From assembly GCA_023481165.1 (NCBI GenBank), contig JAMCWO010000191.1, forward strand, positions 1,434-65,433: DNA of 64,000 nucleotides, read 5' to 3'. This DNA is from Planctomycetota bacterium. GTDB taxonomy: Bacteria > Planctomycetota > Phycisphaerae > Sedimentisphaerales > Anaerobacaceae. The notes under the pieces were generated by a model. The model was not told the DNA's origin. It made no database searches and saw only the letters and a list, made by a program, of their open reading frames with translations. Positions 2,015 through 21,231 of this stretch are shown here, in pieces. Position 1 is the stretch's first letter. Each line of letters opens with the position of its first letter. The position numbers and the translations under genes are program-made.

Positions 2015-2428
2015 ATGAGCCAGGTGGAACGCATAGGGGTGTCGCTGGAAAAGGATCTGCTCGCCACGTTCGATGGGTTGATCGCCCGGCGGGGCTATCC
2101 GAGCCGGTCGGAGGCGATCCGCGATCTGATCCGCCAGCAAATCAGCGAGGAGCGCTTGAGCAATCCGAAAGCGACCGCGGTGGCGGCGGTCTTCCTGGTC
2201 TACAACCATCATGCGACGAAGCTGATGGAAGAGTTGGCCGGCTTGCAGCACTCGCACCTGCTTCAGACGATTTCTTCGATGCACATTCATCTGGATGAGC
2301 ACGACTGCCTGGAGGTGATCGTGCTGCGGGGGCCGGCGGGCGAGATCAAGAAGACCGCCGAGAACCTGATCAGCCTAAAGGGCGTCAAGCTCAGCCGCAT
2401 CAACCTCTTGACCACCGAGGCCACCTGA
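2015..2428 (+). CDS. nikR: nickel-responsive transcriptional regulator NikR
   Basis: MSQVERIGVSLEKDLLATFDGLIARRGYPSRSEAIRDLIR is a ribbon-helix-helix N-domain. The C-domain carries YNHH, LQHSH and MHIHLDEHDCLEV, matching the His/Cys nickel-site pattern of NikR. AGAGGA lies 7 nt before the ATG at 2015. Confidence 0.85.
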   Translation: MSQVERIGVSLEKDLLATFDGLIARRGYPSRSEAIRDLIRQQISEERLSNPKATAVAAVFLVYNHHATKLMEELAGLQHSHLLQTISSMHIHLDEHDCLEVIVLRGPAGEIKKTAENLISLKGVKLSRINLLTTEAT

Positions 2429-5400
2429 TCGCCCGGGGAACCGCCCGTACCGAAGCGTCAGGGCCGGCAGCACGAGGAGATTGAGGATGGTGGACGTCAC
2501 CAAACCGCCGAGGATCACGATCGCCATGGGGCCCTCGATCTCGCGGCCCGCTGTCCCTGTACCGACGACCAGGGGCAGCAGGCCCAGCCCCGTGACCAGA
2601 GCCGTCATCAGGATCGGAGCCAATCGCTCGGAAGCGCCCCGCGTGGCCGCCTCCGGGCCCCAGCTCATGCCCTCCACCACCACCAGGTGCTCATAGTGGG
2701 AAATCAGCATGATGGAATTTCGCAGCGTGATGCCGAACACGGTGATGAAACCCACCATGGCGCCAAGCGAAAGCAGGGTTCCCGACAGCAGCAGAATCAG
2801 CACGCCGCCGACCAGGGCGAAGGGTAGGTTCAGCAGGACCAGCAACACGTTGCGATGGTTTCGCAGCACGATGGACAGCAGGAGAATGATCCCGATGCCG
2901 GCCAGGGCGGAATGGATCTCCAGGTCTTCCGTGGCCCGCGCCTGGGCTTGGGCCGCGCCGGCAAATTGCACATAGGTCCCCGCGGGCAGGACCACGGAAG
3001 AGAGAATGTCCCGGCGGGCCTGGGCGACGAAGGAGTTGACGCTGCGTCCCTGGACATTGCACGTGATAGTCTGGACCCGCCGGCCGGTATTGTGCAGGAT
3101 CGTATAGCGCCCGGGGGCCTCGTAGATATCGGCCAGTTGCTGCAGCGGCAGGTACGTGCCGCCGGGACTACGCAGCGGCAGGGCCTGGATTTCATTGATG
3201 GAGCGGCGGTCTTGCGGGTCGAGGAAGACCGCCACGTTGAACACCTGGTCCCCCTGGTAGATTTGCCCCACCACAGCGCCCTGGTAGGCGGAACGAACCG
3301 CATCCAGAACGGTCACCGGATCGAAGCCCCAGCGCAGCAGGTCGCCTTTGCGGACCACAATCTCGATTTCCGGGCTGGTGGGCAGGGCCGCCATCGTAAC
3401 GTCGGCGGCCCCCGGAATCTGCTGCAGTAGATGCATGACTTCCTGCCCCAGGTCTTGGAGCACCTCGAAGTCCTGGCTGAAGATGTCGATGACAACGGCG
3501 GCGCCATAGCCGGAAAGTGTCTCGCCGATGCGTTCCGTCAAAAAGGAGTTGACCTGGTAGGTGATCCCGGGGAACTGGGCCAGCATCTGCCGCACCTGCC
3601 CGGGGGAATACCCGACCGGCGTTCCGCCGGCCGAGGCGAAGCTGATATCGATCTCGCTGGAGCCGATCCCCCGCGTGGATGAGCCCTCTTCGGCCCGGCC
3701 CGTCTTCTGGGACACGTACCGGGCATCCGGCAGCTTCAACAACTCACGTGAGACGAGGTCTCCCAGGCGCAAGGACTCTTCGAGCGAAGTCCCCGGGATC
3801 GTGTTGACGTGGACGATGGCATTGCCTTCCCGCAGGGAAGGCAGAAACTCCGTGTGCAGAAAGAAGAATACGATTACACCGATGACGATCAGGAGGACCA
3901 CAACGCCGATCGCTGCCCAGGGATGTCTGTCGACATGCCTGAGAATCCTGCCATACCCTCTTTTGAGCCAGCGTACCACAGGCGGCTCCTTTTCCACGTT
4001 CGGAGTACCGCCTTTAGGCGGGTAAGACTCTTCTGATCCGCGTAAACGCGGTACTGGGCTCCCCAACGCGCCGAGCAGCAGGGAAGATAGGGCCGGCGTG
4101 ACGGTAAGGGCGACCACCAGCGACGTGAGGACGGCCGCGATGTACGCAATGCCGAGGGGCGCAAAGAGCCGGCCCGCCACGCCGGACAAGGTCAGCACCG
4201 GGACGAATACCAGCACCACAGCGAATGTGGCGAATACCACGGCACTGCGAACCTCGATGGAAGCATCCAGGATCACCCGCAGCACCGGGCGTGGATTTTG
4301 CCGATGGCGATTCTCGCGCAGACGCCGCAGGATGTTCTCCACGTCGATCACGGCGTCGTCCACCACCTCCCCGATGGCCACGGCCAAGCCGCCCATCGTC
4401 ATCGTGTTGAGACTCTGACCGAAGTACCGCAAAACCGTCACGGCCCCCAGGAGCGATAAGGGAATGGCGATGATGGAGATGACCGCCGTGCGCCAGTTGA
4501 ACAGAAATAGAAACAGCACGATCGCGACCAGAATTGCTCCTATTCCCAGCGCCTGCTCCACGTTGCGCAGGGCCGTGTGAATGTAGGTCGCCGGGCGGAA
4601 GAGTTCCGAGTAGAGAACGATGTTCTCCTTCTGCAGCATCGGGCGCAGGTCCGCCACGGCCTGATCCAATTGCGAGGTGATATCGAGTGTGTTGGCCTGG
4701 TATTGCCCCGTAATCAACAGGACCACCCCAGGCTGTCCATTCACGGAGGCGGCCCCAATCGGCGGCGCCTCCGCCTCGACCACCTGTGCCACAACGCCCA
4801 GGGTCACGTTGGCTCCCTCGTGGTGCACCAGAACTGTCTGGGCCAACCCCTCCGGCGTCAGCGACTGGCCTTGCATCCGGAGCGTAAGACGCTGGTTGGG
4901 GGTTTCGATGAAGCCCGCCCCCCGGATGGCGGTGGCCTTGGCCCCGACGCGCAGCACATCGTCCATCGACAGGTTGTATTTGATGAGTTGCGAGGGCCGG
5001 ACCTGGATTTGTAGCTGTTTGACCTGCCCGCCGTAGACCTGCACTTGAGCCACTCCGGGCGCGGCCAGCAGCCGGGGCTTGATCGTCCAATCCGCAATCG
5101 TCCTAAGGTCCATGAGACTGCGGGTCTTCGAGGTCAGTCCCAACTGCAAGACCGTCCCGGTCGAGGAAGTCAGGGGCGAGAGAAAAGGCGTCACGCCTGT
5201 CGGCAAAGGCTCGGTCATCGAGGCCAGCCGTTCGGCCACCATCTGCCGGGCCCGATAGATATCGATGCCCGTATGAAAAACAATGGTGATGGCAGACAGG
5301 CCGTGCAGGGAAGATGAACGAAAGGACTCGATGCCTGCCACTCCACCGATGGTGTTCTCCACGGGCCGTGTGACCAGCATTTCCACCTGCTCGGAGGAAA

Positions 5401-5587
5401 GCCCCGGCGCTTCCAGCCGGATACTGACTTGCGGCGAGGTGAACTCGGGAAAGACGTCGTACTCGGTCTTCGTGAGAGAGTAGATGGCGTAGGCCGCCCA
5501 CAGAGCCGCCAGCGCGATGATGACGCCGCGAAAGCGTAGAGAGAAGCGAACGATGGCGGCGAGAATGCCTGTAGTCTCCAAGTTCAT
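2375..5587 (-). CDS. heavy-metal-efflux type RND permease (CzcA/CusA family)
   Basis: The true start, MNLETTGILAAIVRFSLRFRGVIIALAAL, is at 5587 and overlaps the upstream stop as ATGA. The product is 1070 aa. DVFPEFTSPQVSIRLEAPGLSSEQVEMLVTRPVE is typical of HME-RND N-termini. The protein is large with 12 predicted TM segments. The first 206 codons of the track ORF overlap the MFP gene and are not coding. Confidence 0.9.
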   Translation of the reverse strand: MNLETTGILAAIVRFSLRFRGVIIALAALWAAYAIYSLTKTEYDVFPEFTSPQVSIRLEAPGLSSEQVEMLVTRPVENTIGGVAGIESFRSSSLHGLSAITIVFHTGIDIYRARQMVAERLASMTEPLPTGVTPFLSPLTSSTGTVLQLGLTSKTRSLMDLRTIADWTIKPRLLAAPGVAQVQVYGGQVKQLQIQVRPSQLIKYNLSMDDVLRVGAKATAIRGAGFIETPNQRLTLRMQGQSLTPEGLAQTVLVHHEGANVTLGVVAQVVEAEAPPIGAASVNGQPGVVLLITGQYQANTLDITSQLDQAVADLRPMLQKENIVLYSELFRPATYIHTALRNVEQALGIGAILVAIVLFLFLFNWRTAVISIIAIPLSLLGAVTVLRYFGQSLNTMTMGGLAVAIGEVVDDAVIDVENILRRLRENRHRQNPRPVLRVILDASIEVRSAVVFATFAVVLVFVPVLTLSGVAGRLFAPLGIAYIAAVLTSLVVALTVTPALSSLLLGALGSPVPRLRGSEESYPPKGGTPNVEKEPPVVRWLKRGYGRILRHVDRHPWAAIGVVVLLIVIGVIVFFFLHTEFLPSLREGNAIVHVNTIPGTSLEESLRLGDLVSRELLKLPDARYVSQKTGRAEEGSSTRGIGSSEIDISFASAGGTPVGYSPGQVRQMLAQFPGITYQVNSFLTERIGETLSGYGAAVVIDIFSQDFEVLQDLGQEVMHLLQQIPGAADVTMAALPTSPEIEIVVRKGDLLRWGFDPVTVLDAVRSAYQGAVVGQIYQGDQVFNVAVFLDPQDRRSINEIQALPLRSPGGTYLPLQQLADIYEAPGRYTILHNTGRRVQTITCNVQGRSVNSFVAQARRDILSSVVLPAGTYVQFAGAAQAQARATEDLEIHSALAGIGIILLLSIVLRNHRNVLLVLLNLPFALVGGVLILLLSGTLLSLGAMVGFITVFGITLRNSIMLISHYEHLVVVEGMSWGPEAATRGASERLAPILMTALVTGLGLLPLVVGTGTAGREIEGPMAIVILGGLVTSTILNLLVLPALTLRYGRFPGRSGGLGGQEVDAAELDAL

Positions 5588-6651
5588 TTCCTGGCCTTCT
5601 TGCCTTTCTGTGCCTGCCGGTGCGCTTCCTGGGACAGAAGAAGCTGTGCCCCTCGGACGACGCACCACTGGCCGGCCGAGAAACCTTCCCGCACGAACCA
5701 GCCGCCGGAGACAGGGGTATTCGTGGGAATTTCCCGACGGACAAAGGTGTCCGGGCTCGTCTGCACGTAGATCCAGGCTCGGCCTTGCAGCCAGACGACG
5801 GCGGACGCGGGAACATCGATCCCGCGTATCTCCTGACCGGTCGGGAGAGATGCCACAATGTTCATGCCGGGCAGAAGACCCGTGGCCTTGGCCGGCGCCC
5901 GATAGAAGAAGCTGAATCCCTGGATGCGCGGGTCCGTCCGGGGAGACGCCGAAACGCAGGTGGCCGTTTCCGTCTTTCCAACGGGTGTCTCGATGGTCGC
6001 GCTTGGAGGGGGAGACAACAACTTCGTCCCTACCGGCACCGTGATCTGGATCAGCACCTCCTCCTGGTCCATCAATCGGACGAGCGGGGCGGAGTTTTCC
6101 TCGATCCATTGGGCGATTACAGGCCCCCACTGCTGCCGGAGGAGCGCCGTCTGAGAATGAAGCGCCACTTCCGCCGCCCGTGCCTGGGCCTGGTCCGACA
6201 GCCAAGTGGCCTGCGCCTTCTGGACAGCCTTTTCGGAGGTGCTACGATTGTCTTTATAGAGCGACTGGGCGCGGGTGTACTCCTCCCGCGCGGCCACCAG
6301 TTCGGCCTGGGCACTTTCCTGCTTCGCCTGGGCATCGGCGAAGCGGCTCCTGGAATCGGACAACTGCTGCGTGTCGGAAACAGTCCCGTAGGCCGTGACC
6401 TTCTCCTGAAAGGACATCAAGTTCAGCGGGGCCACCGCGATTCCCCCTTTCGTCTGCTGGGCCGGGCTCAACGTCACCTCATTGTGGTCCACCGGCTTGG
6501 GCGCCATCTTTCCGGCAGGTTGATTGGGATCCAGCGGCCTTCCGGTGCCCTTCCCGTGTCCCAGAATCCATGTCGCCAACAGGGCGCCGCCTCCCGCGAG
6601 GGTCACGACAGCCGTCCAGAGAAACACTCTATTCCTGATCTGTTCGGACAC
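5584..6651 (-). CDS. efflux RND periplasmic adaptor (MFP) subunit
   Basis: GTG start, an N-terminal TM anchor, a coiled-coil segment (AQAKQESAQAELVAAREEYTRAQSLY) and a beta-barrel C-terminus. It sits between the OMF and RND genes. Confidence 0.8.
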   Translation of the reverse strand: MSEQIRNRVFLWTAVVTLAGGGALLATWILGHGKGTGRPLDPNQPAGKMAPKPVDHNEVTLSPAQQTKGGIAVAPLNLMSFQEKVTAYGTVSDTQQLSDSRSRFADAQAKQESAQAELVAAREEYTRAQSLYKDNRSTSEKAVQKAQATWLSDQAQARAAEVALHSQTALLRQQWGPVIAQWIEENSAPLVRLMDQEEVLIQITVPVGTKLLSPPPSATIETPVGKTETATCVSASPRTDPRIQGFSFFYRAPAKATGLLPGMNIVASLPTGQEIRGIDVPASAVVWLQGRAWIYVQTSPDTFVRREIPTNTPVSGGWFVREGFSAGQWCVVRGAQLLLSQEAHRQAQKGKKARK

Positions 6652-6667
6652 GGCGTTATCATCTCCC

Positions 6668-8062
6668 TTACTCTTTGGGATTGGGGACCGAATCCTCGCA
6701 CACCAGCGGACGCATCACCGCATCCTCCAACGCACCTAACGCCTGCTGTACGCCGACGAACGATTGGAGTCGGGAGAGAGAGGCCGCGTTACGGTCCTGT
6801 TCCACGGTGAGAAGCTCCAGGCGGCTGATATCCCCCACTTCGAATTGTCTCTGGGCGATCTTCTCCTGGTCGGTGCGCTGCGCGAGAATCGACTCGGCCA
6901 CCTTCAGCACATCCAAAGCTTTGCTGTAACCGACCGCGGCCTGCTCCACCTGGCTGATCACGCTGATTTGCAGAGCGTAGAAGCGCTCTGCCGCTTCCCG
7001 GCGTTTCGCCTCGGCTGCCGCGATCGGTCCTTGGTTCTGATTGAAGATCGGCAGGGTTACGGCCAAGCCAATGCCCCACTCATTTTGTCCCTGGTCGAAC
7101 TCGTAGGCCGGTCCCAGGCTGATGTCGGGGTACTGCCTGGCAATCTCCAGTTGCAGGTCCGATTGGGCCGCCTGATAATCCGCCAGGGACGAGAGCACAT
7201 CGGGGCGACTCCAGAGAGCTGCCTTCCGTACCTCCGCGGCGAGCAGGCTGGAGGGGACCTTTTCGAGACACGTGAAAGACAGGTCGATCCTTGTCAGCGC
7301 CGCCTCCGGCAGAGCCAAAGCCGCCGCTAAGGCCGCCCGATCCTGGGCGATCTGCTTGCTCGTCCCAATCAAGGACAAGCGCGCCTGGTCCAGGGCGATG
7401 CGTGCCTGGCTGAGCACGAGCTGCGAGATTTCCCCACGCTGGAGCTGCTTCTCCTGCATCTCTACCGTCTGTTGCTGCAACCGGACTTGTTCCTGCTGAA
7501 GACTCTCGGTGTGGAGGGCCGTGTACAGGTTCAGGAGACTTGTCCGCACCCGGCTGTGCACCTGCCAGGCGAGCGTCGCTGTGTTCAGCCGCGCGGCCGT
7601 GGCGAGGTTCCGGGCACGCGCGATCCGGTAGCCGCGTTTGCCCGCCGTCTCGATCGGAGCCAGAACGGAGAAGTCCACAATCCACGGGGAAATCCCACCG
7701 CCCGTGTTGGTCACATACTGAGGTGTGAACCGTAGAGCCGGATGGGGCCATTGGCCGGCTGTCCGGATCCCGGCTTCGGCCACTTGCCATTGGGCTTGGG
7801 CGACCTTCACCTGGGGTTGGTAATAGCACGCGGCCAGCGCCAGCAGGTCGAGGCTCCATTGTTTGGGGGGCCACGGCGTCATTTCCCGATGAAGATCCGT
7901 CTCCAGGAAAGCCCTCACTTCCGAAGAATCCAGACGCCGGGCTTCGAAAGCCGCGGCTGATGTCTCGGGAGAGATGGGCTCATCCTGGAACGTGGTGCAT
8001 CCGGCGGTCACAGCCGCAAGCAAGACCAAGGCGCTGACGTTCCGGGCCATGGCGTTCCCCAA
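6668..8062 (-). CDS. TolC-like outer membrane efflux protein (lipoprotein)
   Basis: Lipobox LLAAVTAGCTTF. Two repeated long alpha-helical halves typical of outer membrane factors. It lies 16 nt upstream of the MFP gene. Confidence 0.8.
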   Translation of the reverse strand: MGNAMARNVSALVLLAAVTAGCTTFQDEPISPETSAAAFEARRLDSSEVRAFLETDLHREMTPWPPKQWSLDLLALAACYYQPQVKVAQAQWQVAEAGIRTAGQWPHPALRFTPQYVTNTGGGISPWIVDFSVLAPIETAGKRGYRIARARNLATAARLNTATLAWQVHSRVRTSLLNLYTALHTESLQQEQVRLQQQTVEMQEKQLQRGEISQLVLSQARIALDQARLSLIGTSKQIAQDRAALAAALALPEAALTRIDLSFTCLEKVPSSLLAAEVRKAALWSRPDVLSSLADYQAAQSDLQLEIARQYPDISLGPAYEFDQGQNEWGIGLAVTLPIFNQNQGPIAAAEAKRREAAERFYALQISVISQVEQAAVGYSKALDVLKVAESILAQRTDQEKIAQRQFEVGDISRLELLTVEQDRNAASLSRLQSFVGVQQALGALEDAVMRPLVCEDSVPNPKE

Positions 8063-9580
8063 TTATCCCCCGCCCTGCACGAAGACGTAGACCCGCGCCC
8101 CGCTGGGGTCGGTTATGAGCAAACGTACGCCCGACGATGGCTTCACGGAGGAGAGGATCTGATCGGCCTGCTGACTGGAGGTGACGGCTTCATTCTGAAT
8201 CTGCAAGATCACCATGCCCGGAATCAGACCGGCGAACGCGGCCTCCGAGCCCGGCTGTACCGCCGTGATCATGACTCCCTGAAGAGACGATGGATAGCCG
8301 TATTTCTGCGCCAACTCCGGCGTCAGAGTCGTCAGGCTGATCCCGAACCCGCCGGGCGCCGCGGTCTGGGGAGCCGGTGCGGGAGTCGAAGGCTTCTCCG
8401 GCAGCGCCGCGATCTCCACTTCGATGGTCAGTTTCTCACCTTTGCGGTACACGTCAAATGGGACCTTCGTGCCGGGGGACAAGCCCGTCACGATGCGGCG
8501 CAGGGCGGCGCTGCTATCCACCGGCTTGCCGTCGATGGCGGTGATGAAGTCTCCCGTCTTGATCCCTGCCTTGGCACCGGGACCATCCGGCACGACTTCC
8601 GCCACCAGGGCCCCTTTCGTCGTCGGCAGGCCAAAGCTCTTGGCGAGCTTCTCACTCACGTCCTGGACCTCTACCCCCACGTAGCCGCGGACGACTTTGC
8701 CCTTTGCGATCAATTGGGTCATCACGTGCTTCGCCGTGTTGGAGGGGATCGCCAAGCCAATTCCGGCGTTGATCTTCTCCGGCGAGACAATCGCGGTATT
8801 GATCCCGATGACCTGGCCCTTCATGCTCGTCAAGGGCCCGCCGGAATTGCCCGGGTTGATCGCGGCATCCGTCTGAAAGTAGCTCTCCGAATCGTCGCTG
8901 ATGGTGCGCCCTCGCGCAGAGATGATGCCGGCGGTGACTGTCTGGGCCAATCCTTCCGGAGCACCGACCGCCAAGACCCAATCCCCGACGACGACCTTGC
9001 TGCTGTCTCCCAACGGGACCGAAATCAGGTCCGAGGCATCGATCTTGACCACCGCCAGGTCCGTCAGCCGGTCGGTGCGTACCCACTGTGTCTTGAAATG
9101 GCGTCCATCCGCCAGAATGACTTCCACGGTGTCGGCCCCATGCACCACGTGCCAGTTCGTCAGGATGTAGCCGTTGTTCGCATCCACAATGATGCCGCTG
9201 CCCAGTCCATAGATGTACTCGTATGTCGGCGGCAGGGCCTTGCCGCCATTGCCGCCAAAGAGGTGCTGCCAGAAGTCGCGCATGCCGGAGCCGACGGTCT
9301 GCGTTTCCTTGACCCGCTCCGTTACCTGGACCATGACCACGGCGGGCCGGACGATCTCGGCCACGGCGTAAAACAGCGGCGACAACGTGTCGCCTTTTCT
9401 TAGTTCCGGCAGGGCCGTCCGCGCCGTTTTGACCTCCTGGGCCACCCGGTCGAAGCGAATCCGCTGAACTACCATCGGTACGAAAACGAGCGCCCCGACT
9501 CCCACGGCCAGTCCCAATAGCCATATCAGTGTTGATCCACGGATGCGCATACTCTGTTGCCTTTCGCACTTGGTCCTCAT
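8063..9580 (-). CDS. htrA: HtrA/DegP-family serine protease with two PDZ domains
   Basis: GYILTNWHVV (His), GNSGGPL (Ser) and two PDZ-like C-terminal segments. The start ATG overlaps the upstream stop (ATGA at 9577-9580). An alternative ATG lies at 9550. The stop directly abuts the TolC-like start with 0 nt between them. Confidence 0.9.
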   Translation of the reverse strand: MRTKCERQQSMRIRGSTLIWLLGLAVGVGALVFVPMVVQRIRFDRVAQEVKTARTALPELRKGDTLSPLFYAVAEIVRPAVVMVQVTERVKETQTVGSGMRDFWQHLFGGNGGKALPPTYEYIYGLGSGIIVDANNGYILTNWHVVHGADTVEVILADGRHFKTQWVRTDRLTDLAVVKIDASDLISVPLGDSSKVVVGDWVLAVGAPEGLAQTVTAGIISARGRTISDDSESYFQTDAAINPGNSGGPLTSMKGQVIGINTAIVSPEKINAGIGLAIPSNTAKHVMTQLIAKGKVVRGYVGVEVQDVSEKLAKSFGLPTTKGALVAEVVPDGPGAKAGIKTGDFITAIDGKPVDSSAALRRIVTGLSPGTKVPFDVYRKGEKLTIEVEIAALPEKPSTPAPAPQTAAPGGFGISLTTLTPELAQKYGYPSSLQGVMITAVQPGSEAAFAGLIPGMVILQIQNEAVTSSQQADQILSSVKPSSGVRLLITDPSGARVYVFVQGGG

Positions 9581-10707
9581 TTGCCCTCCAAGTCTATCTT
9601 GAGATCCAGGAACTTGAGCAGATCCTTGAGGGTCACGATGCCTGCCAAATGGTCACCATCCACCACCAGGAGCCGGCTGTTGCCGGTGCGGTTCATGATA
9701 GACAGCGCCTGCATGGCGTCGGTATGGGAGCCAATGGCATTCTCGGCCGAGCACGGGGCGAGCACGTCTTGCACCGTGTAGCGGTCCCACTGCTCGCGCG
9801 ACAGATCCCGGACCTGCTTCGTGGTGACACAGCCTACGAGCGTGCCGTCGGACGCGACGGGAAACATCCGGTGATGATATTGATAGAAGTAGTTGTCCAC
9901 CAGCTCGTGCACGGAGATGGAAGGCGGCACGACCACGGGATTGGGCTGCATGAACCTCATGATGGGCTCACCGCCCAAAGCCTGGCGGATCAGCACCTGC
10001 CGGTAAGACATCCGGGCGGCCGACCGGACGAACAGGCCGATCAGGAAATACCAGATCCCGGTGACAAAGCCTCCCAGGAGGAAGGTCGCCAACCCCAGCA
10101 GGATCAGGAGAATGCCAAAGCCGGAGCCAAAGGCGGCCGCTATCCGCGTGGACCACCGCAAACGCCCCGTGGCCGCCCACAGGATCGACCGGAAGACCCG
10201 GCCGCCATCGAGCGGAAAGGCCGGGATCAGGTTGAAGACAGCCAACAGGAAATTCAACCAGCCCAGGTACTGCAAGACGCCCCAGACGGACATCGGCCAG
10301 TGCGCGACGATGCCGGCGTGCGCGATCCCCACCAGAATGCCGCCCAGAACGGCGCTGGACAACGGACCGGCAATCGCCATGAGGAACTCGGTCTTGGCAT
10401 TGGCCGGCTCGTCCCCCATCTCCGCCACGCCGCCGAAAATAAACAGGGTGATGCCCTGCATCGGCAATCCGAAACGCCGGGCGACCAGCGAATGACAGAA
10501 CTCGTGGAAGACAATCGAGAAGAACAGGCCGACGGCCCCCGCCACGCCCATGGCCCAATAGATCCCCGTCGCGTAGCCTTGGTAGTACACGGGGAAGAAA
10601 TAGACGGCCAGCGACCACGCTACCAGGATGGCGAGCAGAAACCATGTGAAGTCGATGCCCACACTAAAGCCAAACAGAGTGAACAGGTGTATCTTCTTCC
10701 CAAACAT
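9577..10707 (-). CDS. M50 site-2 protease family metalloprotease with a C-terminal CBS pair
   Basis: HEFCHSLVARRFG (HExxH) lies in a polytopic membrane core. NLIPAFPLDGGRV is the second metal-ligand motif. The C-terminal CBS-like repeats include LAGIVTLKDLLKF. A GGAGA SD precedes the ATG at 10707. Confidence 0.85.
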   Translation of the reverse strand: MFGKKIHLFTLFGFSVGIDFTWFLLAILVAWSLAVYFFPVYYQGYATGIYWAMGVAGAVGLFFSIVFHEFCHSLVARRFGLPMQGITLFIFGGVAEMGDEPANAKTEFLMAIAGPLSSAVLGGILVGIAHAGIVAHWPMSVWGVLQYLGWLNFLLAVFNLIPAFPLDGGRVFRSILWAATGRLRWSTRIAAAFGSGFGILLILLGLATFLLGGFVTGIWYFLIGLFVRSAARMSYRQVLIRQALGGEPIMRFMQPNPVVVPPSISVHELVDNYFYQYHHRMFPVASDGTLVGCVTTKQVRDLSREQWDRYTVQDVLAPCSAENAIGSHTDAMQALSIMNRTGNSRLLVVDGDHLAGIVTLKDLLKFLDLKIDLEGK

Positions 10708-10931
10708 CGGAGTATCTCCTATGATCCATTACTGTAGCCAAGGCGGCAGCATGGAGACATAGGGAAATCACCCGGTCTGATGAAGATATTCCCTCAAAGA
10801 GGCTGCTTCCGGCGACCGACACCGCCTGAGCCGCGCCGAGACCGGCCTCCGGCTATGCCCCCGGAAATTCGAGGGCCGGGCCGCCGAAGTCCCCCGCGAC
10901 TTTCGTCTTTCGCTTTCGCTCTCCGCGTCCC

Positions 10932-11678
10932 TCAGTGCGGATGCCGGTGGCGCAGGATGTGGGGGCGTTCGAGGCCGTGGGCCAGCATGAGCGCCTCATC
11001 GTTCAGAAGGTCGGCCGTGGGTCCGTCCGCCACGATCTGGCCGTGGTCCAGCACCAACGCGCGCGGACAGCTTTCCACGACGAATTCCAGATCGTGCGTC
11101 GCGATGATCTGCGCGATGGGCAGCCGGGCGAGCAGGGCCATCAATTCCCGTCGGCCGCGCGGGTCCAGCTCGCTGGTCGGCTCGTCCAGCGCGAGCACCC
11201 GCGCGTCACACGCCAGGAGCCCCGCCAGGCAGACGCGGCGCTTCTCGCCGCGACTGAGGTGATGAGGGAGCCGTTCTTCAAAACCGGCCAGCCCGACCTG
11301 CGCCAACGCCTCGGAGACGCGAGCGGCCAACGCGGCCCCGCGCAGGCCCCACTGCTGCGGACCGAAGGCGACATCCTCCCACACGGTGGGGCAGAACAAC
11401 TGATCGTCCGGGTCTTGAAACAGCAGGCCCACCTGGGCGCGGATCGTTTCCAGGTGCGGCGCGGCCACCGGGGTCCCGAAGACCCGCACGGCCGGCTCCG
11501 CCGCGGGGCGTTCCGGCAGCAGACCGTTGAGGTGCAGGAGCAACGTGGACTTGCCCGCGCCGTTCGGGCCGAGCAGGCCCACCCGTTCGCCTTCCGCGAG
11601 AGAAAAACTGACGTCCTGCAAGGCGGCCGTGCCATCCGCGTAGCGATAACTGAGGCCCCGGACTTCCAACGTGTTCAT
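10932..11678 (-). CDS. ECF-type nickel/cobalt transporter ATPase (NikO/CbiO)
   Basis: MNTLEVRGLSYRYADGTAALQDVSFSLAEGERVGLLGPNGAGKSTLL (Walker A), LSRGEKRRV (signature) and VLALDEPT (Walker B). The ATG at 11678 overlaps the upstream stop (ATGA). Confidence 0.9.
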   Translation of the reverse strand: MNTLEVRGLSYRYADGTAALQDVSFSLAEGERVGLLGPNGAGKSTLLLHLNGLLPERPAAEPAVRVFGTPVAAPHLETIRAQVGLLFQDPDDQLFCPTVWEDVAFGPQQWGLRGAALAARVSEALAQVGLAGFEERLPHHLSRGEKRRVCLAGLLACDARVLALDEPTSELDPRGRRELMALLARLPIAQIIATHDLEFVVESCPRALVLDHGQIVADGPTADLLNDEALMLAHGLERPHILRHRHPH

Positions 11679-12289
11679 GTCTTCCATCCTCGTGCGCACA
11701 TGGCGGCGTAGATGCGCTCGGCGTGCTCGAGACTGCGGAGAAACAAATGCGCGATGACGCCGGCGCCGGACCGCCAGACCCAGAGCCGGCCGTCGGTGAA
11801 CGTGCGGCTGCGGCGCGCCCGGCGCATGCGCCCCATCTCGTCGTGGAGCAGAAAGACGTAGCGGTGCATCAGCGCCAGCGTGGTCACCAGCAAGGACGGC
11901 ACGCGGGCCCGTCCCAGCGCCTGGAGGAGGTCGGTGAAGCGGGTCGTGCTGGACAGCAGGACCATGCACAAGAGGCAGAGCGTGCTCCGGGCCAGCATGG
12001 CGGCGAAGACGCGGATGCCGTTGTGTTGCAGGAGCGCCAGCAGCGCGATTCCCAGCGCGAACGGCTCGACCCAGAGGAGCTTGCGGGCCAGCACACGGGC
12101 CGGGAGTCGGGCGAAAGCGGCTATCAGCAACAGCGCCGCAGCTCCCAGCGCGTAGGCGCGCCATGCCGAAAGGGGCAGCAGCACGACGACAAAAACAAAC
12201 ACCAAAGCGCCGATCAATTTGACCGTCGCCGGGAGCCGGTGAATGGGGCTATCCCGATGCTGGTAGAGGCTGAGCAGTTGATGATCCAC
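11675..12289 (-). CDS. ECF transporter transmembrane (T) component (NikQ/CbiQ)
   Basis: IHRLPATVKLIGALVFVFVVVLL followed by a multi-TM region and the ARxR-rich loop typical of CbiQ. It lies between the M and O components. GTG start. Confidence 0.8.
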   Translation of the reverse strand: MDHQLLSLYQHRDSPIHRLPATVKLIGALVFVFVVVLLPLSAWRAYALGAAALLLIAAFARLPARVLARKLLWVEPFALGIALLALLQHNGIRVFAAMLARSTLCLLCMVLLSSTTRFTDLLQALGRARVPSLLVTTLALMHRYVFLLHDEMGRMRRARRSRTFTDGRLWVWRSGAGVIAHLFLRSLEHAERIYAAMCARGWKT

Positions 12290-12310
12290 GGCGGAAATCC
12301 TCTCTCGACC

Positions 12311-13270
12311 TCACGCGGACTTCGCCCGGGCGAAGCCGGTCGGCGTCAGGAAACGCGCCAGCAGATAGGCAAAGACAAACGCCGCCACCGTGCCCACACA
12401 ACCGGCGACAATCGTGGAGAGCACGGCCGACCCGATCCCCGGCACCGCATAGTCGGGAAACGGCGACGGCGCTACCGGGGTCCCGGCGGCCCGGTGGGCA
12501 AAACCCAGGACGGCCGCAACGGTTTCCAAGCCATCCGGCCAACTGCAAGCAAAGGGCGTCAAGAACACGACCAGCCCCAGGGCCAGGAGCAGGCCCTGCG
12601 CCAGCAGGCGCCGGCGGTTCGAGGGAAGGTCCGCGGCGGCGCCTTCCAGGAGCAGCTCCGGACGCACGCGAAGGATCGTCGCGATCACCAGTGTGGTAAG
12701 GAGCGCTTCGCCGAGGCCGATGAGCATGTGAAGGCCGGCCATGGCCGGAAAGCCGACGGCCCAAGCCACGGTCCCCGACCACGCCAACTCACCGGTACAG
12801 GCCAGCGCGGCGGCCACCGGCGAACACCAGGAGGCAAAGGCCACCGCCAAAAGCTGGCCGCGCGGTCCGCCCCCCGCGCTGCGCCGAACGACCGCGTAAA
12901 CCACGTACCCGACCCCGGGGGCCACCAGGGCCATATTGAGCAGGTTCGCGCCCAGGGCCGTCACACCGCCATCGGCGAACATAAAACATTGCAGAATCAC
13001 CACCGCGCTCATGACCACGACCGCCCCGCTCGGGCCGAGGAGAACCGCGGCCAGGACCCCGCCGAGCAAATGGCCGGAGGTCCCGCCGGCCACGGGGAAA
13101 TTCAACATCTGCGCCGTGAAAAGGAAGGCCGCGGTCAAGCCCAACAGGGGGACGCGCCGCGGCGGAAGACAGCGCCGGACCCGCAGCAGAGCGAGCCCCA
13201 GCCCCGCCGCCGCCAGGGCGCCGGTCGTCGTTGCCGTCTTGGCATCGATGAACCCATCGGGGATGTGCAC
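12311..13270 (-). CDS. NikM/CbiM substrate-capture component fused to a PDGLE (NikN/CbiN-like) C-terminal domain
   Basis: The (M)HIPDGF N-terminus is characteristic of CbiM/NikM. The C-terminal extension contains WPDGLE plus a final TM helix. The GTG start is preceded by GAAGGAGGAG. Confidence 0.8.
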   Translation of the reverse strand: MHIPDGFIDAKTATTTGALAAAGLGLALLRVRRCLPPRRVPLLGLTAAFLFTAQMLNFPVAGGTSGHLLGGVLAAVLLGPSGAVVVMSAVVILQCFMFADGGVTALGANLLNMALVAPGVGYVVYAVVRRSAGGGPRGQLLAVAFASWCSPVAAALACTGELAWSGTVAWAVGFPAMAGLHMLIGLGEALLTTLVIATILRVRPELLLEGAAADLPSNRRRLLAQGLLLALGLVVFLTPFACSWPDGLETVAAVLGFAHRAAGTPVAPSPFPDYAVPGIGSAVLSTIVAGCVGTVAAFVFAYLLARFLTPTGFARAKSA

Positions 13271-13346: not shown

Positions 13347-13374
13347 GTGTTACTCTTTGACCAAAAGGTAGCAC
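13347..13374. promoter_or_regulatory. candidate NikR operator
   Basis: GTGTTAC-N14-GTAGCAC is an imperfect inverted repeat, one mismatch from GTGTTAC-N14-GTAACAC. It lies 77 nt upstream of the nikM start and overlaps the putative -10. Confidence 0.5.
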
Positions 13375-13491: not shown

Positions 13492-13872
13492 ATGGCGGCG
13501 CAAGGAGCGTTCACGGTCGATCTGAACAGTAAGCCCGAGTATCAGAGGCTCCTGGAGGGCAAGCCCCAGACGCTGGGGATGCGCTCCGGGCGGGTCCATC
13601 TGCTGCCGGGGCAGGCGTGCGGCCAGCACAGCACGAAAAATCACGAGGAGTTGTTGGTGTTTCTCGCCGGCCAGGGCGAGCTCCAGATCGGTGGCCCCGA
13701 CCCGAAAATCGGACGCACCGCGGCCCTCGGAACCGAGGGCGCGCCCGGGGCCCGCCACGCGGTCGGCGTGGGCAAGGTGGCCTATATCCCGCCCGAGACG
13801 CTCCACGATGTCAGCAACACGGGCCGGGAGCCGCTGATCTATATTTATTGCGTGGCGCCCGTCGGCTCATAG
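13492..13872 (+). CDS. cupin domain protein
   Basis: The ATG at 13492 follows AGGAG. GMRSGRVHLLPGQACGQHSTKNHEELLVFLAG ... VAYIPPETLHDVSNTG fits the two cupin motifs. Confidence 0.7.
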   Translation: MAAQGAFTVDLNSKPEYQRLLEGKPQTLGMRSGRVHLLPGQACGQHSTKNHEELLVFLAGQGELQIGGPDPKIGRTAALGTEGAPGARHAVGVGKVAYIPPETLHDVSNTGREPLIYIYCVAPVGS

Positions 13873-15016: not shown

Positions 15017-15093
15017 TGTAGGGGCAGGCCCCCGTGCCTGCCCTCTTGGCTTTGTGCCCGTCCCGGGAGGGCGACCACAGGGGGTCGCCCTAC
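15017..15093. repeat. double-hairpin palindromic element (TGTAGGGG...CCCTAC family), copy at the kinase ORF 3' end
   Basis: TGTAGGGGCAGGCCCCCGTGCCTGCCC ... GGGCGACCACAGGGGGTCGCCCTAC. The left arm differs by 1 nt from the copy at 19336. The kinase ORF stop codon (15090-15092) lies inside the right arm. Confidence 0.7.
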
Positions 15094-16928
15094 GGTTTGG
15101 GTACGGCAGCGCTTTGGATGCAGAAGAACCGCACCTCGCTCAGACCAGCGGACGGCGTACTGCCCCAGCCTTTGTCGATGGTCAGCTTAACGTATTTGGC
15201 CGAGACCCCCCCGAAGCTGACGATCGTGTTCGCTGTATAACCGGGCTTGCCGGTCGCTTTGGCGAATTCCGGCACGTTAGCCACGGCTGTCCACGTCGTG
15301 CCATCGGTGGAGTACTCGATCTTGACGGTCTGGGCGCCAAAGCCGATGAAGGACTCTATCGGCTGATTGGAGTTCCACACCCATAGCTCATGCAGGGTGT
15401 AGACCTTGTCGAACTGGTACTGAATCCAGTGCGGCGCGGTGGTGCTGAGCCACATGTCGGTTCCATTCGTCGAATGTCCATCGCTCTTGTCGAGCCCGGA
15501 GCCATCGATCGTCCTCTCCGGCCCCATGTTAACCTGGGACGGGGAAGCTGTGGCCGTGATGCTCTTGATCGGATACGTCAAGGCGGCAGTCGTGAACTTC
15601 AGGATCGGCCCCTTGATAGGAGTAGCGCCCGAGATCACGAAATCCACCCGCCAGTAGTAGGTCTGGCTGACTTTCAGCGGCTCTGCGGGGTCGTAGGTAC
15701 TCGCTGTCTGCCCCTGGCTCACCAACACGCCCTGTGGATTCGTTCGACTGGCCGTGCTGACCACTTCGAGAGAGGTGCCGAAGTAGAGATCGCAGGCTTG
15801 GGCGAACGAAGGTGAGATCCAACTCAGGATGACATCGCAAGGCACATCTGAGGCTTTGGGTCCGGGAGTCACCAGCGATTCCATGAGAACCCCAAGGTCT
15901 TTCTCGTCCACGATACCATCGCCCCAGGCAAAGGGACCGATGTCACACAAGGACGTGTTCTTCCCCCAATTGTCCGCCAGAAGGCTCATGTCTTTCGCAT
16001 CGACCTTGCCGTCGCCGTTGAAGTCCATGACGGGAATGATCGGTGCCTGCCAGAGGTCCCATCCGCCGACGCCGCCGGGACACGGGCCTTCGAAATCATC
16101 GAAATAGCACCACCGCCCGTCAGGCGAAATGCTCGAAATGCAATTGGAGTAGTTGGTGTTGAGAGTTGGCCCAAGGTTCCTTGGTGGACCCCAGACGCTG
16201 GTCTTAGAGGGGCGAGTCGTTATCCACGTGTCCCATGCTCCAAAGCCACCAGGGCGATTCGACGCGATAAGGAGCGTTAGGGCATCAGGCGATATCCACT
16301 GGCACATATCATGAAGGGAACTGTTGACCGTTGCGCCGAGATTCACTGGCGTTCCCCAGGCATCTGAGGTGGTTGCCCGCTTGCTCACCCAGATGTCCCA
16401 GCCACCATATCCGCCGGGACGAATCGATATGAAATAGAACTCTAAGCCGTCCGGCGAAACGATTGGCTGAGCGTCCTTCCCCTGTATGATGATGTTTGGA
16501 GCCAGACTTGCCGCCGGTCCCCAGGGAGCATCTCTGGTGGCACGTGTGGTCGAGCACAAATCGTTGCCCCTTTGGAAATACAAGGTCAGTCCATCTGCCG
16601 ATATGCTCCCGGTTGCGTCCCAACCTGGTGAATTCACCTGCGCTCCCAAATTGGCGGGTGGACCCCATGCGTCTGGTACGCTGGCTCGCTTGGTCACCCA
16701 GATATCGAACCCGCCATATCCTTCGGGGCGATTGGAAGTGAAGTACAACTCCAGACCATCAGGGGAGAGAATGGCATTATAATCACGGGACGCACTGTTA
16801 ACGGTTGGCCCCAGATTCGCAGGCGTGCCGAAGACGAAATCCGCGTGCGCGGGAGGCGCATCAAGACCCGCGAGGAAACAAAGACTCAGTAGTGATAGTC
16901 CGGCCGTGGGAATCTCGAACAGTTTCAT
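15090..16928 (-). CDS. alternative model: independent secreted PD40-repeat / dockerin-like / discoidin protein starting at an internal ATG
   Basis: The internal ATG at 16926-16928 is preceded by GGAAGGTGTGAG. It encodes MKLFEIPTAGLSLLSLCFLAGLDAPPAHA-DF, a complete signal peptide, at codon 1153 of the long ORF. Confidence 0.4.
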   Translation of the reverse strand: MKLFEIPTAGLSLLSLCFLAGLDAPPAHADFVFGTPANLGPTVNSASRDYNAILSPDGLELYFTSNRPEGYGGFDIWVTKRASVPDAWGPPANLGAQVNSPGWDATGSISADGLTLYFQRGNDLCSTTRATRDAPWGPAASLAPNIIIQGKDAQPIVSPDGLEFYFISIRPGGYGGWDIWVSKRATTSDAWGTPVNLGATVNSSLHDMCQWISPDALTLLIASNRPGGFGAWDTWITTRPSKTSVWGPPRNLGPTLNTNYSNCISSISPDGRWCYFDDFEGPCPGGVGGWDLWQAPIIPVMDFNGDGKVDAKDMSLLADNWGKNTSLCDIGPFAWGDGIVDEKDLGVLMESLVTPGPKASDVPCDVILSWISPSFAQACDLYFGTSLEVVSTASRTNPQGVLVSQGQTASTYDPAEPLKVSQTYYWRVDFVISGATPIKGPILKFTTAALTYPIKSITATASPSQVNMGPERTIDGSGLDKSDGHSTNGTDMWLSTTAPHWIQYQFDKVYTLHELWVWNSNQPIESFIGFGAQTVKIEYSTDGTTWTAVANVPEFAKATGKPGYTANTIVSFGGVSAKYVKLTIDKGWGSTPSAGLSEVRFFCIQSAAVPKP

Positions 16929-19900
16929 CTCACACCTTCCCTTCTGCCCGAAGGCAACAGACATTGTTGGAATCGTATTGACAGGTCTTTCTGCAGAGAA
17001 GACGAGTTCACAGTCGAAAGGCAGGTCGATGACGTGCCGCTGGCCGGCCGCTGCGTCGAACCACGAGTCGAACGCCGACCGGCCACTCGTGACGGCGGAC
17101 CACCGCTTCATATCAGCCTCGGCTCTGGCTCGTTCGTGCAGAGCGTCGTAGCACCGCGCCCGCACTAAGTAGGCGTGGGCGTCCCACGGGTCGGTCGCAA
17201 TGCGCTGGGTGTGCCGGGCCACCAGTTCTCGGAGGTGCTCGCCCACCGTTTGGGCGGGCCCCAGCGCCTCGACCGTTGTGACGGCGGGAGCAAGGTCCGC
17301 CGTCCAAATCTCGAAATACGGTGCACCCAGTTCAAAAACGAGTTTCGCCCCCTCCGTGGCCCACGAGCCTACCGTGATCGGACCACCCAGCGTCTGGGCA
17401 GGCTGATTCTGGCCCAGGCGATATACCCACAGTCCCGTCGGGTTTTCCAGACCGCCGCTGCCGCCCAGGCACAGTTCGTTACTGCCCGGAGACCAGGCCA
17501 ATGCGCCCCAGCCATCGGAGGGCGAAGGCAGAGGCCATCTGGCGATCAACGTCTGGGAGGCCAGGTCTATGACCTTCAGGGCTGTGCCCTCTAGGCAGGC
17601 CATGCGTTGATTGTCGGGCGACACCGACGGGTTCCATTGCGGACACGGAATGACCCGTTTCAGCTCGGGGTCTTCCCCTGCGATGGAGACGCAATAGAGC
17701 GTGCTGTCTGAACGCGATTTGTAGTAGACGCTGTTCGAATCCCGACCCCAGGAGGGCCAGACCCCGACAGCCAGACGCCGTGGCGCGGTCCCATCGTCAT
17801 TCATGAGCCAAACCTCTTCATCCGTGCTGCCGATGGGTTCGTTCTTCGCGTCCGCGGTAACGAATTCCGGGACGGGCAGGAACTGTCGATCCCGCACAAA
17901 AGCAATATGCCGCCCATCCGGCGACCACCGGGGGTACTTGCCGGGGACGATCAGCAGATCCGTTTTTCCCGTGCTAGGATCGAAGACGGCAATACCGCTA
18001 CGGCCCTGCACTCCCAGACTAAAGGCCAGCCTCTTGCCATCCGGCGACCACGCGGCACTAAAGCCGTCCGTAGTCAGCCGCCGGCCTTTGGCGGAGAGCA
18101 GGCGATGGGTCTCCTCCGCCTCCACCATCGGCAGAAAGGCCGCCCCTGCCGGCGCGGGACCTGCCGGATGCCAGGACTGTCCGGCCGTCAACGTGTCAAA
18201 GACATACTTGGCGCACCAGTTCCGGAACTTCTGTCGTGCCTCCTGGCCGGGGCTGATGAGCCGACGAAACAAGGCGGCAGCTTCGTCGTAGTCGCCCACC
18301 GCTGTCAGCGCGCCGAACAGGTGATTGTGTAGGACCGACACATCTTCCGCCCCCGGCTGGACCTCCGCGATGATGCGACCGTAATCCTTCATCCGCAGGA
18401 GCGTGTCGCAGCGTTGAACGGACAGTTCCACGTGTTGGGGGCTGTCCTCTGCCGTCAGTTCAATCGCTTTGTCATACTCGCCAATCGCCTCCTGGCAGCG
18501 GTCCAGCTCTCGGAGAGCGGTCGCACGCAGGGAGTGCGCGAGCGGATCAGAATCGCGCAACATCTCCATGGCACGTGCATCCTCGTTCATGCGGTCATAC
18601 TTCCGCGATGCGTACCAGGTATAAGCCCGCAGTCGGAGAGACTCGTAGTGCTTCGAGTTGAGCCGCAGGGCTTCCTCCAGTGCCTCCAGTTGCTCGTGCA
18701 CCGTGATGGCCATCATCGCCCGTAAGTAGAATGCCTCCGCCGTCTTCGGAAGCAGGGCCTCCGCCTTCTGACGGTACTCTTCGATCTGCTTGAACTTATC
18801 GGGGTTGAGTGGACCGCTCTCCCCAAGAATGCGGCCCCAGAGCAAATGGGCTGCCCCCGCAATGTCCGCGCGCTCGTTCACCAGGTCCTTCAGTACGCTC
18901 AGTGCCTCTGCGAAACGGCGGTCGTCCGCGAGAATCCTGGCGTAAAGAAGCTGGGCCTCGGGTCCCGCGTACCTATTCCGAAGGAGCGATTTGATCGTCT
19001 CCAAAGCCGCCTCTCGATCTCCATTGTCATATTGCCCACGAGCTTGGGACAGCGCGGCCTCCGCTAATTTCAAACGGTCTTGATTCCACGCCCAAAGGAT
19101 GATGCTTCCGGCGCCAACCACAACCACCATCATCAGGGCAGCGATGGCCTGCGCGCGGTGTCGCCGGAGGAACTTGGCCAGACGATAGGCTGGGCCGGGG
19201 CCGCGGGCCAGAACCGGCTCGTGCTCCAAATGCCGCCGCACGTCTTCGGCCAAACCGCTGACGGTCTCGTAGCGCCGGACACGGTCCTTCTCCAGGGACT
19301 TCATCACGATCCAGTCCAGATCGCCGCGGACCTCTTGTAGGGGCAGGCCCCCGTGTCTGCCCAACTTCGGGCGGCCACGGGGGGCCGCCCCTACAGGTCG
19401 CCGTTCCCGCGTGGCGGTTCGGATCCGGGTCGAGGGCTTGACCGGCTCCTGCTCTCGGATCACCCGCTGCATCTCGATGTAGCCAGCTTGGCGGAGTTCC
19501 TCTTCACTGAAGGGGGTCGTCCCGGTCAGCAGTTCATAGAGCAACACGCCCAGCGAGTAGATGTCCGAGCGGGTGTCGATGTCCAGATCGCTCAGTTCCG
19601 CCTGCTCCGGACTCATGTAGGCCGGGGTGCCGATGATATGAGCGTAACGAGTGAAGAGCGTCTTTTCGGTCAGCTTCTGGTTCGTGGCCTTAGCTATCCC
19701 GAAGTCGATCACCTTGGGGACGGGCTTACCATCATGGTGCGTAACCATCACATTGGAAGGTTTGAGATCGCGATGGATGATGCCCTTCTGATGGGCGTGC
19801 TGCACGGCGTTGCAGACCTGTAGGAATAATACCAGCCGGTCTTTCGTGCTCAGGCTGTTCTTGTCGCAGTACTCGGTGATCGAAACGCCCTGGACCAGCT

Positions 19901-20664: not shown

Positions 20665-21231
20665 CTACAAACCGTCGATCTGCCCCAGTTCCACGCGTAG
20701 CCAGGCGCGGGCGTAGTCCCAACCCCGCTCGGCCGTCGCGTGCGAGATGCCCAAGGCTTGCGCCGCCTGCTCGATGGTCAGGCCCGCGAAATAGCGGAGC
20801 TTCACCAGATCGGCCTTGAGCGGGTCCTGCCGGGCAAGCTTGGCCAGTGCCTCGTCCAACGCCAGTATCTCCTGGGCTTGGGAAGCGTCGTCCGCCGCCG
20901 GAAATTCCTCGAGGTCCACCGGCCGGCGGCCAGCACCGCGCTTCAGGCTCTTCTTGCGGCGGGCATTGTCGATCAGGATACGCCGCATAGCCTCGGCGGC
21001 GGCCTTGAAGAAATGACCCTTGCTGTCCCAGCCATGTCCCTCATGGCCCACCAGGCGGAGGTATGCCTCATGCACCAGGGCGGTCGCTTGGAGGGTCTGG
21101 CCGGGAGGCTCAAGGGAGAGCTTTTGGGCGGCGAGAAGGCGGAGTTCCTCATAGACCAGGGGCAAGAGTTCGTCCGTAGCTTTCGCGTCCCCCCGTTCGA
21201 TGGCATTCAAGATGCGTGTGACATCACTCAT
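20665..21231 (-). CDS. ECF sigma factor of the Ser/Thr-kinase-associated type (TIGR02999-like)
   Basis: [38 protein letters not shown] ... [10 protein letters not shown] is the distinctive N-terminus of this ECF subgroup. The region 4 HTH is [21 protein letters not shown]. The gene lies directly upstream of the kinase. Confidence 0.85.

Follow-up and report, generated by a model that had tools for sequence, protein, structure and literature searches.

A site-2 protease-HtrA gene pair followed by a tripartite efflux pump in a planctomycete: a narrowly distributed variant of the RND operon

We describe a cluster of five minus-strand genes at positions 2375-10707 of a stretch of 64,000 nucleotides from contig JAMCWO010000191.1 of an uncultured Planctomycetota bacterium (the whole stretch is called the window below), which originates from a mine-tailings metagenome. 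The cluster joins an M50-family site-2 protease (S2P) and an HtrA-family serine protease to a complete efflux pump, consisting of an outer membrane factor (OMF), a membrane fusion protein (MFP) and a resistance-nodulation-cell division (RND) permease. Taken singly, the components are all ordinary members of well-known families; their combination is a variant of the RND operon that has not been described and is narrowly distributed. We suggest, at somewhat better than even confidence, that it is a lineage-specific operon read from a region upstream of the S2P gene, coupling envelope protein quality control to cation efflux, and that the nikR gene overlapping its 3' end is a neighbour.

Five closely spaced genes, two with revised starts

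The gene content and order given in the preliminary description of this DNA are borne out by the open reading frame (ORF) map, Pfam and NCBIfam. The S2P gene (9577-10707, minus strand, as are the four that follow it) encodes a 376-aa M50-family protein with a C-terminal CBS pair, identified from Pfam and from its motifs. Next is an HtrA/Do-family serine protease with two PDZ domains (8063-9550 from its conserved ATG start, with an alternative in-frame start at 9580). The OMF gene (6668-8050, with a first possible start at 8062) encodes a TolC/NodT-like lipoprotein of 460 aa with the lipobox VTAGC; the MFP gene (5584-6651, GTG start) encodes a divergent periplasmic adaptor; and the RND gene (2375-5587) encodes an inner-membrane permease of 1070 aa that resembles the heavy metal efflux (HME) group.

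Two of the junctions have to be redrawn. The ATGA overlap of the S2P and HtrA genes at 9577-9580 is present as described, with GGAGG just upstream, but it is not the conserved HtrA start: in an alignment of four lineages this upstream start (9580) is out of frame or absent in the related loci L087 and L090, whereas the S2P stop and the downstream ATG at 9550 are invariant. Because ATG 9550 is invariant across lineages, the S2P-HtrA gap is 26 nt rather than an ATGA overlap. The spacing of 0 nt reported between the HtrA and OMF genes is obtained if the OMF is read from TTG 8062, the earliest start codon available, and does not stand. ATG 8050 gives an OMF N-terminus, MARNVSALVLLAAVTAGC, that is a lipoprotein signal with a lipobox, and a protein matching the length of the 460-aa orthologue called in L094; it is most likely the true start, which would leave a gap of 12 nt.

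The remaining two junctions are as first described. The OMF and MFP genes are 16 nt apart, and the ATGA overlap of the MFP and RND genes at 5584-5587 can be read directly in the sequence and occurs also in L094; in L087 the same junction is a TGATG overlap of 1 nt. After revision of the starts all gaps between the five genes are at most 26 nt. Short same-strand gaps of this kind are usual for any operon, and are not unusual per se.

A CBS-type site-2 protease and a Do-type HtrA

The S2P is a CBS-type protease of the MjS2P/SpoIVFB group, not of the RseP type. Pfam finds Peptidase_M50 and two CBS stretches (E = 1.8e-17), and HEFCH (residue 68) and NLIPAFPLDG (residue 159) are intact forms of the motifs HExxH and NxxPxxxLDG, their positions being invariant in 40 homologues. 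The closest solved structures are the MjS2P core (3B4R, E = 3e-23) and the CBS domain of an archaeal S2P (5G5R), and SpoIVFB is a weak structure match. RseP-type features were not found: there is no PDZ domain in Pfam, no assigned family in NCBIfam (including TIGR00054) and no RseP chain among the PDB matches. This 376-aa family is strongly conserved, with homologues 49-90% identical across many phyla.

The HtrA protein is of the Do type, not a DegS. It has a Trypsin_2 domain and two PDZ regions in Pfam (residues 299-390 and ~413-474), and GNSGG at residue 244. It passes the Do-family model (TIGR02037, 430.6 bits, cut-off 416.2) and falls below both DegS models (TIGR02038, 300.9 vs 422.95; NF008147, 262.9 vs 408). 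Its N-terminus consists of MRIRGS followed by a hydrophobic stretch of 22 residues, TLIWLLGLAVGVGALVFVPMVV, which may act as a membrane anchor, with the protease facing the periplasm.

An HME-like pump that is not a strict CzcA

The OMF, MFP and RND genes are adjacent, forming a tripartite RND system, and the same trio is found in L094, L095 and L096. The RND protein matches ACR_tran in Pfam (776 bits); TIGR00914 is its best-scoring model, although at 657.2 bits it remains below the cut-off of 701.45. Its best PDB matches are ZneA (398 bits) and CusA (333 bits), with MdtB and AcrB well behind. The OMF has two OEP stretches in Pfam. The MFP has no Pfam match, and in NCBIfam reaches 58.7 bits with RND_mfp and 37 bits with the CzcB/NccB model, both below cut-off; in L094, L095 and L096 its orthologues are flanked by the OMF gene on one side and the RND gene on the other.

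Transmembrane helix (TMH) IV of the RND protein, AIGEVVDDAVIDVEN, reads AIG-EVV-DDA-VID-VEN, and AIG/AVG-X3-DDA-X3-VEN is kept in seven of eight RND homologues, the remaining one ending in TEN. The TMH IV signature of CzcA, CnrA, NccA and the HME1-HME2 RND proteins is DFG-X3-DGA-X3-VEN (PMC3637150; Table S7 of PMC7060636), that of CusA and SilA is A(V/I)G-DAA-IEN, and AIG-X3-DDA-X3-VEN is listed for the putative nickel pump NieA (both from PMC7060636, Table S7). By our reading of the alignments, the residues opposite the CusA methionine triad M573/M623/M672 are H, S and E, and those opposite the ZneA proximal-site residues E136, D602, E610, D654 and D658 are T, S, E, E and E. We rejected a CusA-type Cu(I)/Ag(I) pump (HME4), as the methionine triad is absent and TMH IV has DDA. 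The label "CzcA" used in the preliminary description is loosely right, in that the protein is HME-like; judged by its sequence it is not a strict CzcA, as it lacks DFG-DGA-VEN and stays below the TIGR00914 cut-off. The pump plausibly handles divalent cations.

In L001 an extra ORF of 62 aa lies between the MFP and RND genes (7797-7985; ~5045-5226 in L086), with start/stop overlaps at both ends. It has no Pfam match and looks like two hydrophobic helices; it could encode a small accessory protein of the pump.

Distribution of the pair, the pump and the full cluster

We surveyed 84 other loci carrying S2P homologues 49-74% identical to that of the window, from many phyla, with a flank of 10 kb. 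An RND, MFP or OMF relative lay within 10 kb of the S2P gene at none of the 84, and an HtrA gene was absent from that distance at 82. L031, from a distant member of the Ignavibacteria, has an HtrA gene directly downstream of the S2P gene, the sole such case among the 84, and L046 has HtrA genes 3-6 kb upstream. Those homologues that bear names indicate the Planctomycetota as the source of the window, for the most part the Phycisphaerae. An HtrA-anchored search of genome contigs returned no relatives, and an HtrA-anchored metagenome scan returned a single locus, L086; the HtrA orthologue group is at least 67% identical, the bulk of planctomycete Do proteases at most 57%.

The S2P-HtrA pair is found in the window, L001/L086, L087 and L090/L091, and the HtrA gene without S2P or pump in L088/L089 and L092/L093. 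The full cluster is present in the window, L001/L086 and L094, the contig of the last beginning inside the HtrA gene, with S2P out of view. L087 has S2P-HtrA-MFP-RND without an OMF, and plain OMF-MFP-RND operons without proteases are found in L095 (RND 68% identical) and L096/L097 (65%, Nitrospiraceae). The full cluster is thus confined to close relatives, with RND proteins at least 78% identical. The preliminary description named a lack of synteny between the proteases and RND pumps in relatives as grounds for refutation. Such synteny is kept in three or four related lineages, but outside this narrow clade it is lacking, both at the 84 S2P loci and beside the RND orthologues at 65-68%.

In a neighbour-joining tree all S2Ps that have an HtrA partner group together, in a single clade that lies inside the stand-alone Phycisphaerae-like S2Ps. 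This rules out the operon S2P as a divergent paralogue, and on the tree the S2P-HtrA pair appears to have arisen once. The pump can exist apart from the pair, as the plain OMF-MFP-RND operons of the RND orthologues at 65-68% identity show, and the distribution indicates that it was joined to the pair in a subset of lineages.

Two further observations concern relatives of the S2P and of the pair. L006 and L062 are contigs of one Phycisphaerae metagenome-assembled genome (T1Sed10_97) with S2P homologues 60% and 54% identical, so some genomes carry two S2P copies. In L090 (2107-8655) the S2P-HtrA pair directly follows genes for an OEP protein, a YbhG-like MFP, an ABC ATPase and two ABC-2 permeases; an extracytoplasmic function (ECF) sigma factor gene paired with that of a zf-HC2 anti-sigma factor diverges further upstream of this efflux cluster.

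A conserved upstream region and a plausible five-gene transcript

Every lineage with the S2P-HtrA pair shares a stretch of ~90 nt ahead of the S2P start, which can be aligned between the window, L001, L087 and L090 despite different upstream genes: the upstream neighbour is cbiO in the window, and a gene for a Rce1-like protein, cytochrome bd or an ABC exporter in the relatives whose upstream flank has been sequenced. The conserved pattern is GAGGRAAT-N16-GNGAYT, then CTACA(G/A)TA, then GGAGA-ATG. In the window, where this promoter/operator-like region spans 10708-10800 on the minus strand, the copy reads GAGGGAAT-N16-GTGATT at 10766-10795, followed by CTACAGTAAT, the Shine-Dalgarno sequence AGGAG and ATG 10707. 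In 1.49 Mb of fetched sequence a regular expression for the motif has only six matches. The pattern was derived from four of these, all upstream of S2P; the other two, in L088 and L089, lie 250 nt upstream of a stand-alone HtrA gene. Between motif and intact HtrA gene both loci hold a decayed S2P gene (2938-3215 in L088, 2683-2960 in L089), of which ~190 nt are left. In the L088 remnant the start ATG is now ATA, the codons that follow are recognisable, and there are internal deletions. These comparisons indicate that the S2P-HtrA pair has a promoter/operator-like region of its own, and that S2P can be lost from the pair.

No conserved RNA fold emerged for this upstream region (0 compensatory pairs, -2.3 kcal/mol), and we therefore take it as a DNA element. 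Rfam gave no match to it and no NiCo riboswitch, only one sub-threshold chance match. Two other relaxed matches to the motif occur in the window, at 16316-16343 and 38663-38690.

A scan with the sigma-70 consensus, the only promoter model used, found no minus-strand promoter in or before the cluster. Terminator-like sites number 16, vs 9.5 +/- 2.7 expected, and all are weak and intragenic. Folding revealed no convincing terminator in the cbiO-S2P spacer or around the nikR/RND overlap, the z-scores for the spacer and for both strands around the overlap being -0.5, -1.6 and +0.7. Co-transcription of all five genes is plausible because they are co-directional with short gaps, because the cluster is retained and because the upstream region is conserved.

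We therefore picture the cluster as an older two-gene module, a CBS-type M50 intramembrane protease and then a Do-type HtrA under their own conserved upstream region, followed by a complete tripartite pump at gaps of 12, 16 and -4 nt, most likely on the same transcript. Together the products would mount a combined envelope-stress response, in which the pump would export a toxic cation, probably divalent, HtrA would degrade or chaperone damaged periplasmic proteins, and the S2P would clear or process membrane proteins.

Several observations weigh against this picture. Transcripts may read through from cbiO, as the 224-nt gap to S2P has no convincing terminator, or may start from an internal promoter in the 3' end of the HtrA gene. 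HtrA orthologues lack the pump in L088/L089 and L092, and L087 is without an OMF gene. Synteny at 73-89% protein identity could partly be due to short divergence time. Finally, the RND protein has a TMH IV of the NieA/AcrB-like DD type and acidic residues at three of the five ZneA proximal-site positions, and we only infer its substrate.

The last three genes may instead be a self-sufficient pump operon that landed behind the S2P-HtrA pair, with its own promoter in the 3' end of the HtrA gene or carried by incidental read-through, the tight spacing reflecting compaction. We give this a minority but appreciable chance. It is consistent with orthologous pumps standing alone in L095 and L096/L097, with HtrA orthologues standing alone in L088/L089 and L092, with the unrelated ABC-type efflux cluster that precedes the pair in L090, and with a region so fluid that the OMF gene is present or absent by lineage and a 62-aa ORF has been inserted in L001/L086. 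However, the 12-nt HtrA-OMF gap is too small for an intergenic promoter, the sigma-70 scan detected no minus-strand promoter-like site inside the cluster, and at least three lineages have kept the cluster although its neighbours on either side differ.

Two unlikely forms of regulated proteolysis

A closer functional link between proteases and pump can be imagined in two forms. The S2P and an anchored HtrA might make up a two-protease module that senses envelope or metal damage, is expressed from a GAGGRAAT-N16-GNGAYT promoter possibly dependent on an ECF sigma factor or a response regulator, and is functionally coupled to the pump; for example, it may process a pump component or a membrane-bound regulator. 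We consider this form unlikely; were it true, regulated intramembrane proteolysis would be connected with metal efflux along a route that involves neither RseP nor DegS.

The second form, which extends the DegS/RseP analogy of the preliminary description, is a cascade in which HtrA as site-1 protease and the M50 enzyme as site-2 protease would successively cleave a membrane-bound regulator, such as the anti-sigma factor of a nearby ECF sigma, and so control the pump. The catalytic motifs of both proteases are intact, the long hydrophobic segment at the HtrA N-terminus could be a membrane anchor, and the pair is conserved under one upstream region, with S2P followed by HtrA also in L031. The window has ECF sigma genes at 20665-21231 (PF07638) and 34092-34676, and in L088/L089 and L090 such genes occur close to that for HtrA or S2P. 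The two ECF systems said to be nearby thus exist as sigma genes, but the distance to the operon is ~10 kb for the first and ~24 kb for the second, so that neither adjoins it: no sigma or anti-sigma gene is adjacent to the proteases in the window, the two sigma factors are paired with a Ser/Thr kinase and with a DUF4139 protein (whose gene adjoins the second), and a search of the window found the operon's upstream motif beside neither. The analogy fails also at the level of the proteases, where the likeness is of superfamily only, the S2P having CBS domains instead of PDZ and matching no RseP model or structure, and HtrA having two PDZ domains and passing the Do cut-off while failing both DegS models. 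L088/L089 moreover keep HtrA with S2P decayed, and the S2P family is normally stand-alone (82 of 84 other loci without HtrA within 10 kb). Such a cascade is in our view improbable.

The first ECF sigma gene lies near a gene (15090-20384) for a protein of 1764 aa that combines a Ser/Thr kinase domain with TPR and PD40 repeats and a discoidin domain. Together they resemble kinase-paired ECF sigma systems.

nikR and nickel uptake

The plus-strand gene nikR (2015-2428) encodes a nickel-responsive ribbon-helix-helix repressor of 137 aa, which scores 163 bits with NF003381 (cut-off 105) and has RHH_1 and NikR_C in Pfam. It is convergent with the RND gene, and the ORF map and junction sequence confirm that the two coding regions overlap at their 3' ends by 54 nt (2375-2428), as first reported. 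The overlap arises because a poorly conserved tail of 20 residues at the RND C-terminus, beyond the usual ...RYGRF end, runs on into nikR. Only the window and L094 have this tail, and between them it is 71% identical, whereas the protein as a whole reaches 89%; it has the look of a run-on under weak constraint. In L094 codons 100-135 of nikR remain, a 36-codon 3' stump at 6466-6573 that is 72% identical and antisense to the end of the RND gene; genes for TauE, DUF1634, a P-type ATPase and an MFS protein replace the rest. The overlap therefore predates the split from L094. In L087 nikR is absent, and from these losses it appears dispensable for the pump locus.

The likely target of NikR lies on the other side of the cluster. 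An energy-coupling-factor-type Ni/Co uptake operon, nik(MN)QO or cbiMQO (10932-13270, minus strand; Pfam and NCBIfam), is 224 nt upstream of S2P on the same strand, and consists of genes for a CbiM fused to a PDGLE domain (12311-13270, N-terminus MHIPDG), CbiQ (11675-12289) and CbiO (10932-11678). The NikR consensus GTGTTAC-N13/14-GTAACAC is tied to nik(MN)QO operons (Rodionov et al. 2004, PMC545781). Scanning the whole 64-kb window for GTGTTAC-N12-16-GTAACAC gave a sole site with at most one mismatch, GTGcTAC-N14-GTAACAC (13347-13374), which is separated by 77 nt from the GTG that starts nik(MN) downstream and lies outside the pump operon. By eye it overlaps a promoter-like stretch, TTGACA-N17-TACCTT, that the consensus scan did not flag. 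The most likely role of NikR is repression of the neighbouring nik(MN)QO operon through this predicted box. Matches with three mismatches at 6600-6627, 29470-29495 and 34381-34406 were judged to be chance.

Two features close to these genes deserve mention. A Cupin_2 gene (13492-13872, plus strand, 126 aa) points away from nik(MN)QO, with the NikR box in the intergenic region between the two; it may therefore also be NikR-regulated. Between nikR and a 329-aa ORF at 875-1864 on the minus strand is a tandem direct repeat of 27 nt (1849-1902), with copies CGCATAACA...TCGTGCTAA and CGCATAACA...TCGTGCTAC, each ending in a NikR-like half-site in direct orientation. We rejected it as a canonical NikR autoregulatory site, as the half-sites are direct rather than inverted and the spacing is wrong.

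We consider it improbable that a single NikR-controlled nickel regulon comprises nikR and nik(MN)QO together with the proteases and the pump, with the overlap giving antisense control between nikR and the pump: nikR and the Ni/Co importer do flank the cluster, the RND protein shares its TMH IV motif with the putative nickel pump NieA, the habitat is mine tailings and the nikR/RND overlap is older than the split from L094, but the whole-window scan places its sole good NikR site at nik(MN)QO and none close to the region that precedes S2P, that importer is not upstream in L001, L087 or L090 (the relatives with a sequenced upstream flank), nikR is destroyed in L094 beside an intact pump and missing from L087, the RND protein is without the NieA histidine motifs, and Rfam shows no NiCo riboswitch. 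In our reading of the cluster as a protease-pump operon nikR would be a neighbour, not a component.

Comparison with known systems

The cluster brings together features of several described systems. Like E. coli DegS/RseP and P. aeruginosa AlgW/MucP, it combines an envelope HtrA-family serine protease with an M50 metalloprotease, and HtrA here may likewise be membrane-anchored. RseP, however, has periplasmic PDZ domains where the S2P here has a CBS pair in the cytoplasm, HtrA here has two PDZ domains and a Do-type score against the single PDZ domain of DegS, and in contrast to the sigma-E pathway no sigma or anti-sigma gene adjoins the proteases. To our knowledge E. coli degS and rseP are neither in one operon nor beside a pump. 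A nearer likeness is to MjS2P (MJ0392) and SpoIVFB, which share with this S2P an M50 core with HExxH and NxxPxxxLDG, followed by one or more CBS domains. The S2P here lacks the pro-sigma-K-like substrate and sporulation context of SpoIVFB, and its family is usually a stand-alone gene. If the cluster is co-transcribed, it would offer a first functional handle on this very widespread and highly conserved family of CBS-type S2Ps.

With ZneCAB, CzcCBA, CusCBA and NieA-type systems the pump shares the OMF-MFP-RND order of the CBA operon. Its RND protein has acidic residues at the ZneA positions E610, D654 and D658, and the same TMH IV as NieA, whose histidine motifs HAEGVH..E and HRLDH are replaced, by our alignment reading, by STRGIGSSE and ERIGE. 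It departs from HME-RND pumps in an MFP too divergent for Pfam and in the two protease genes that precede it. The NikR-nik(MN)QO regulon is familiar in that a NikR equivalog is found together with a box upstream of a CbiM/Q/O-type importer; here, however, nikR is ~11 kb from its predicted target, beyond an unrelated operon, with its 3' end overlapping the RND gene. The annotation is corrected accordingly, with new starts for HtrA and OMF, a pump that is HME-like rather than CzcA and nik(MN)QO as the predicted NikR target.

The closest functional parallel may be the E. coli Cpx and sigma-E regulons. These control DegP and inner-membrane proteases; DegP and HtpX are Cpx-regulated, and copper is an inducer of Cpx (PMC6737893). 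In both cases a periplasmic quality-control protease (DegP/DegQ in E. coli) would be co-expressed with envelope-protective functions, under copper induction in E. coli and, as we infer, under metal induction here. The E. coli regulons include inner-membrane proteases and RND pumps at separate loci, whereas here the genes are contiguous, in an arrangement limited to a few uncultured relatives. In model bacteria quality control is linked to efflux only at the level of the regulon; if the five genes are co-transcribed, periplasmic and intramembrane quality control would be hard-wired to an efflux pump within one operon.

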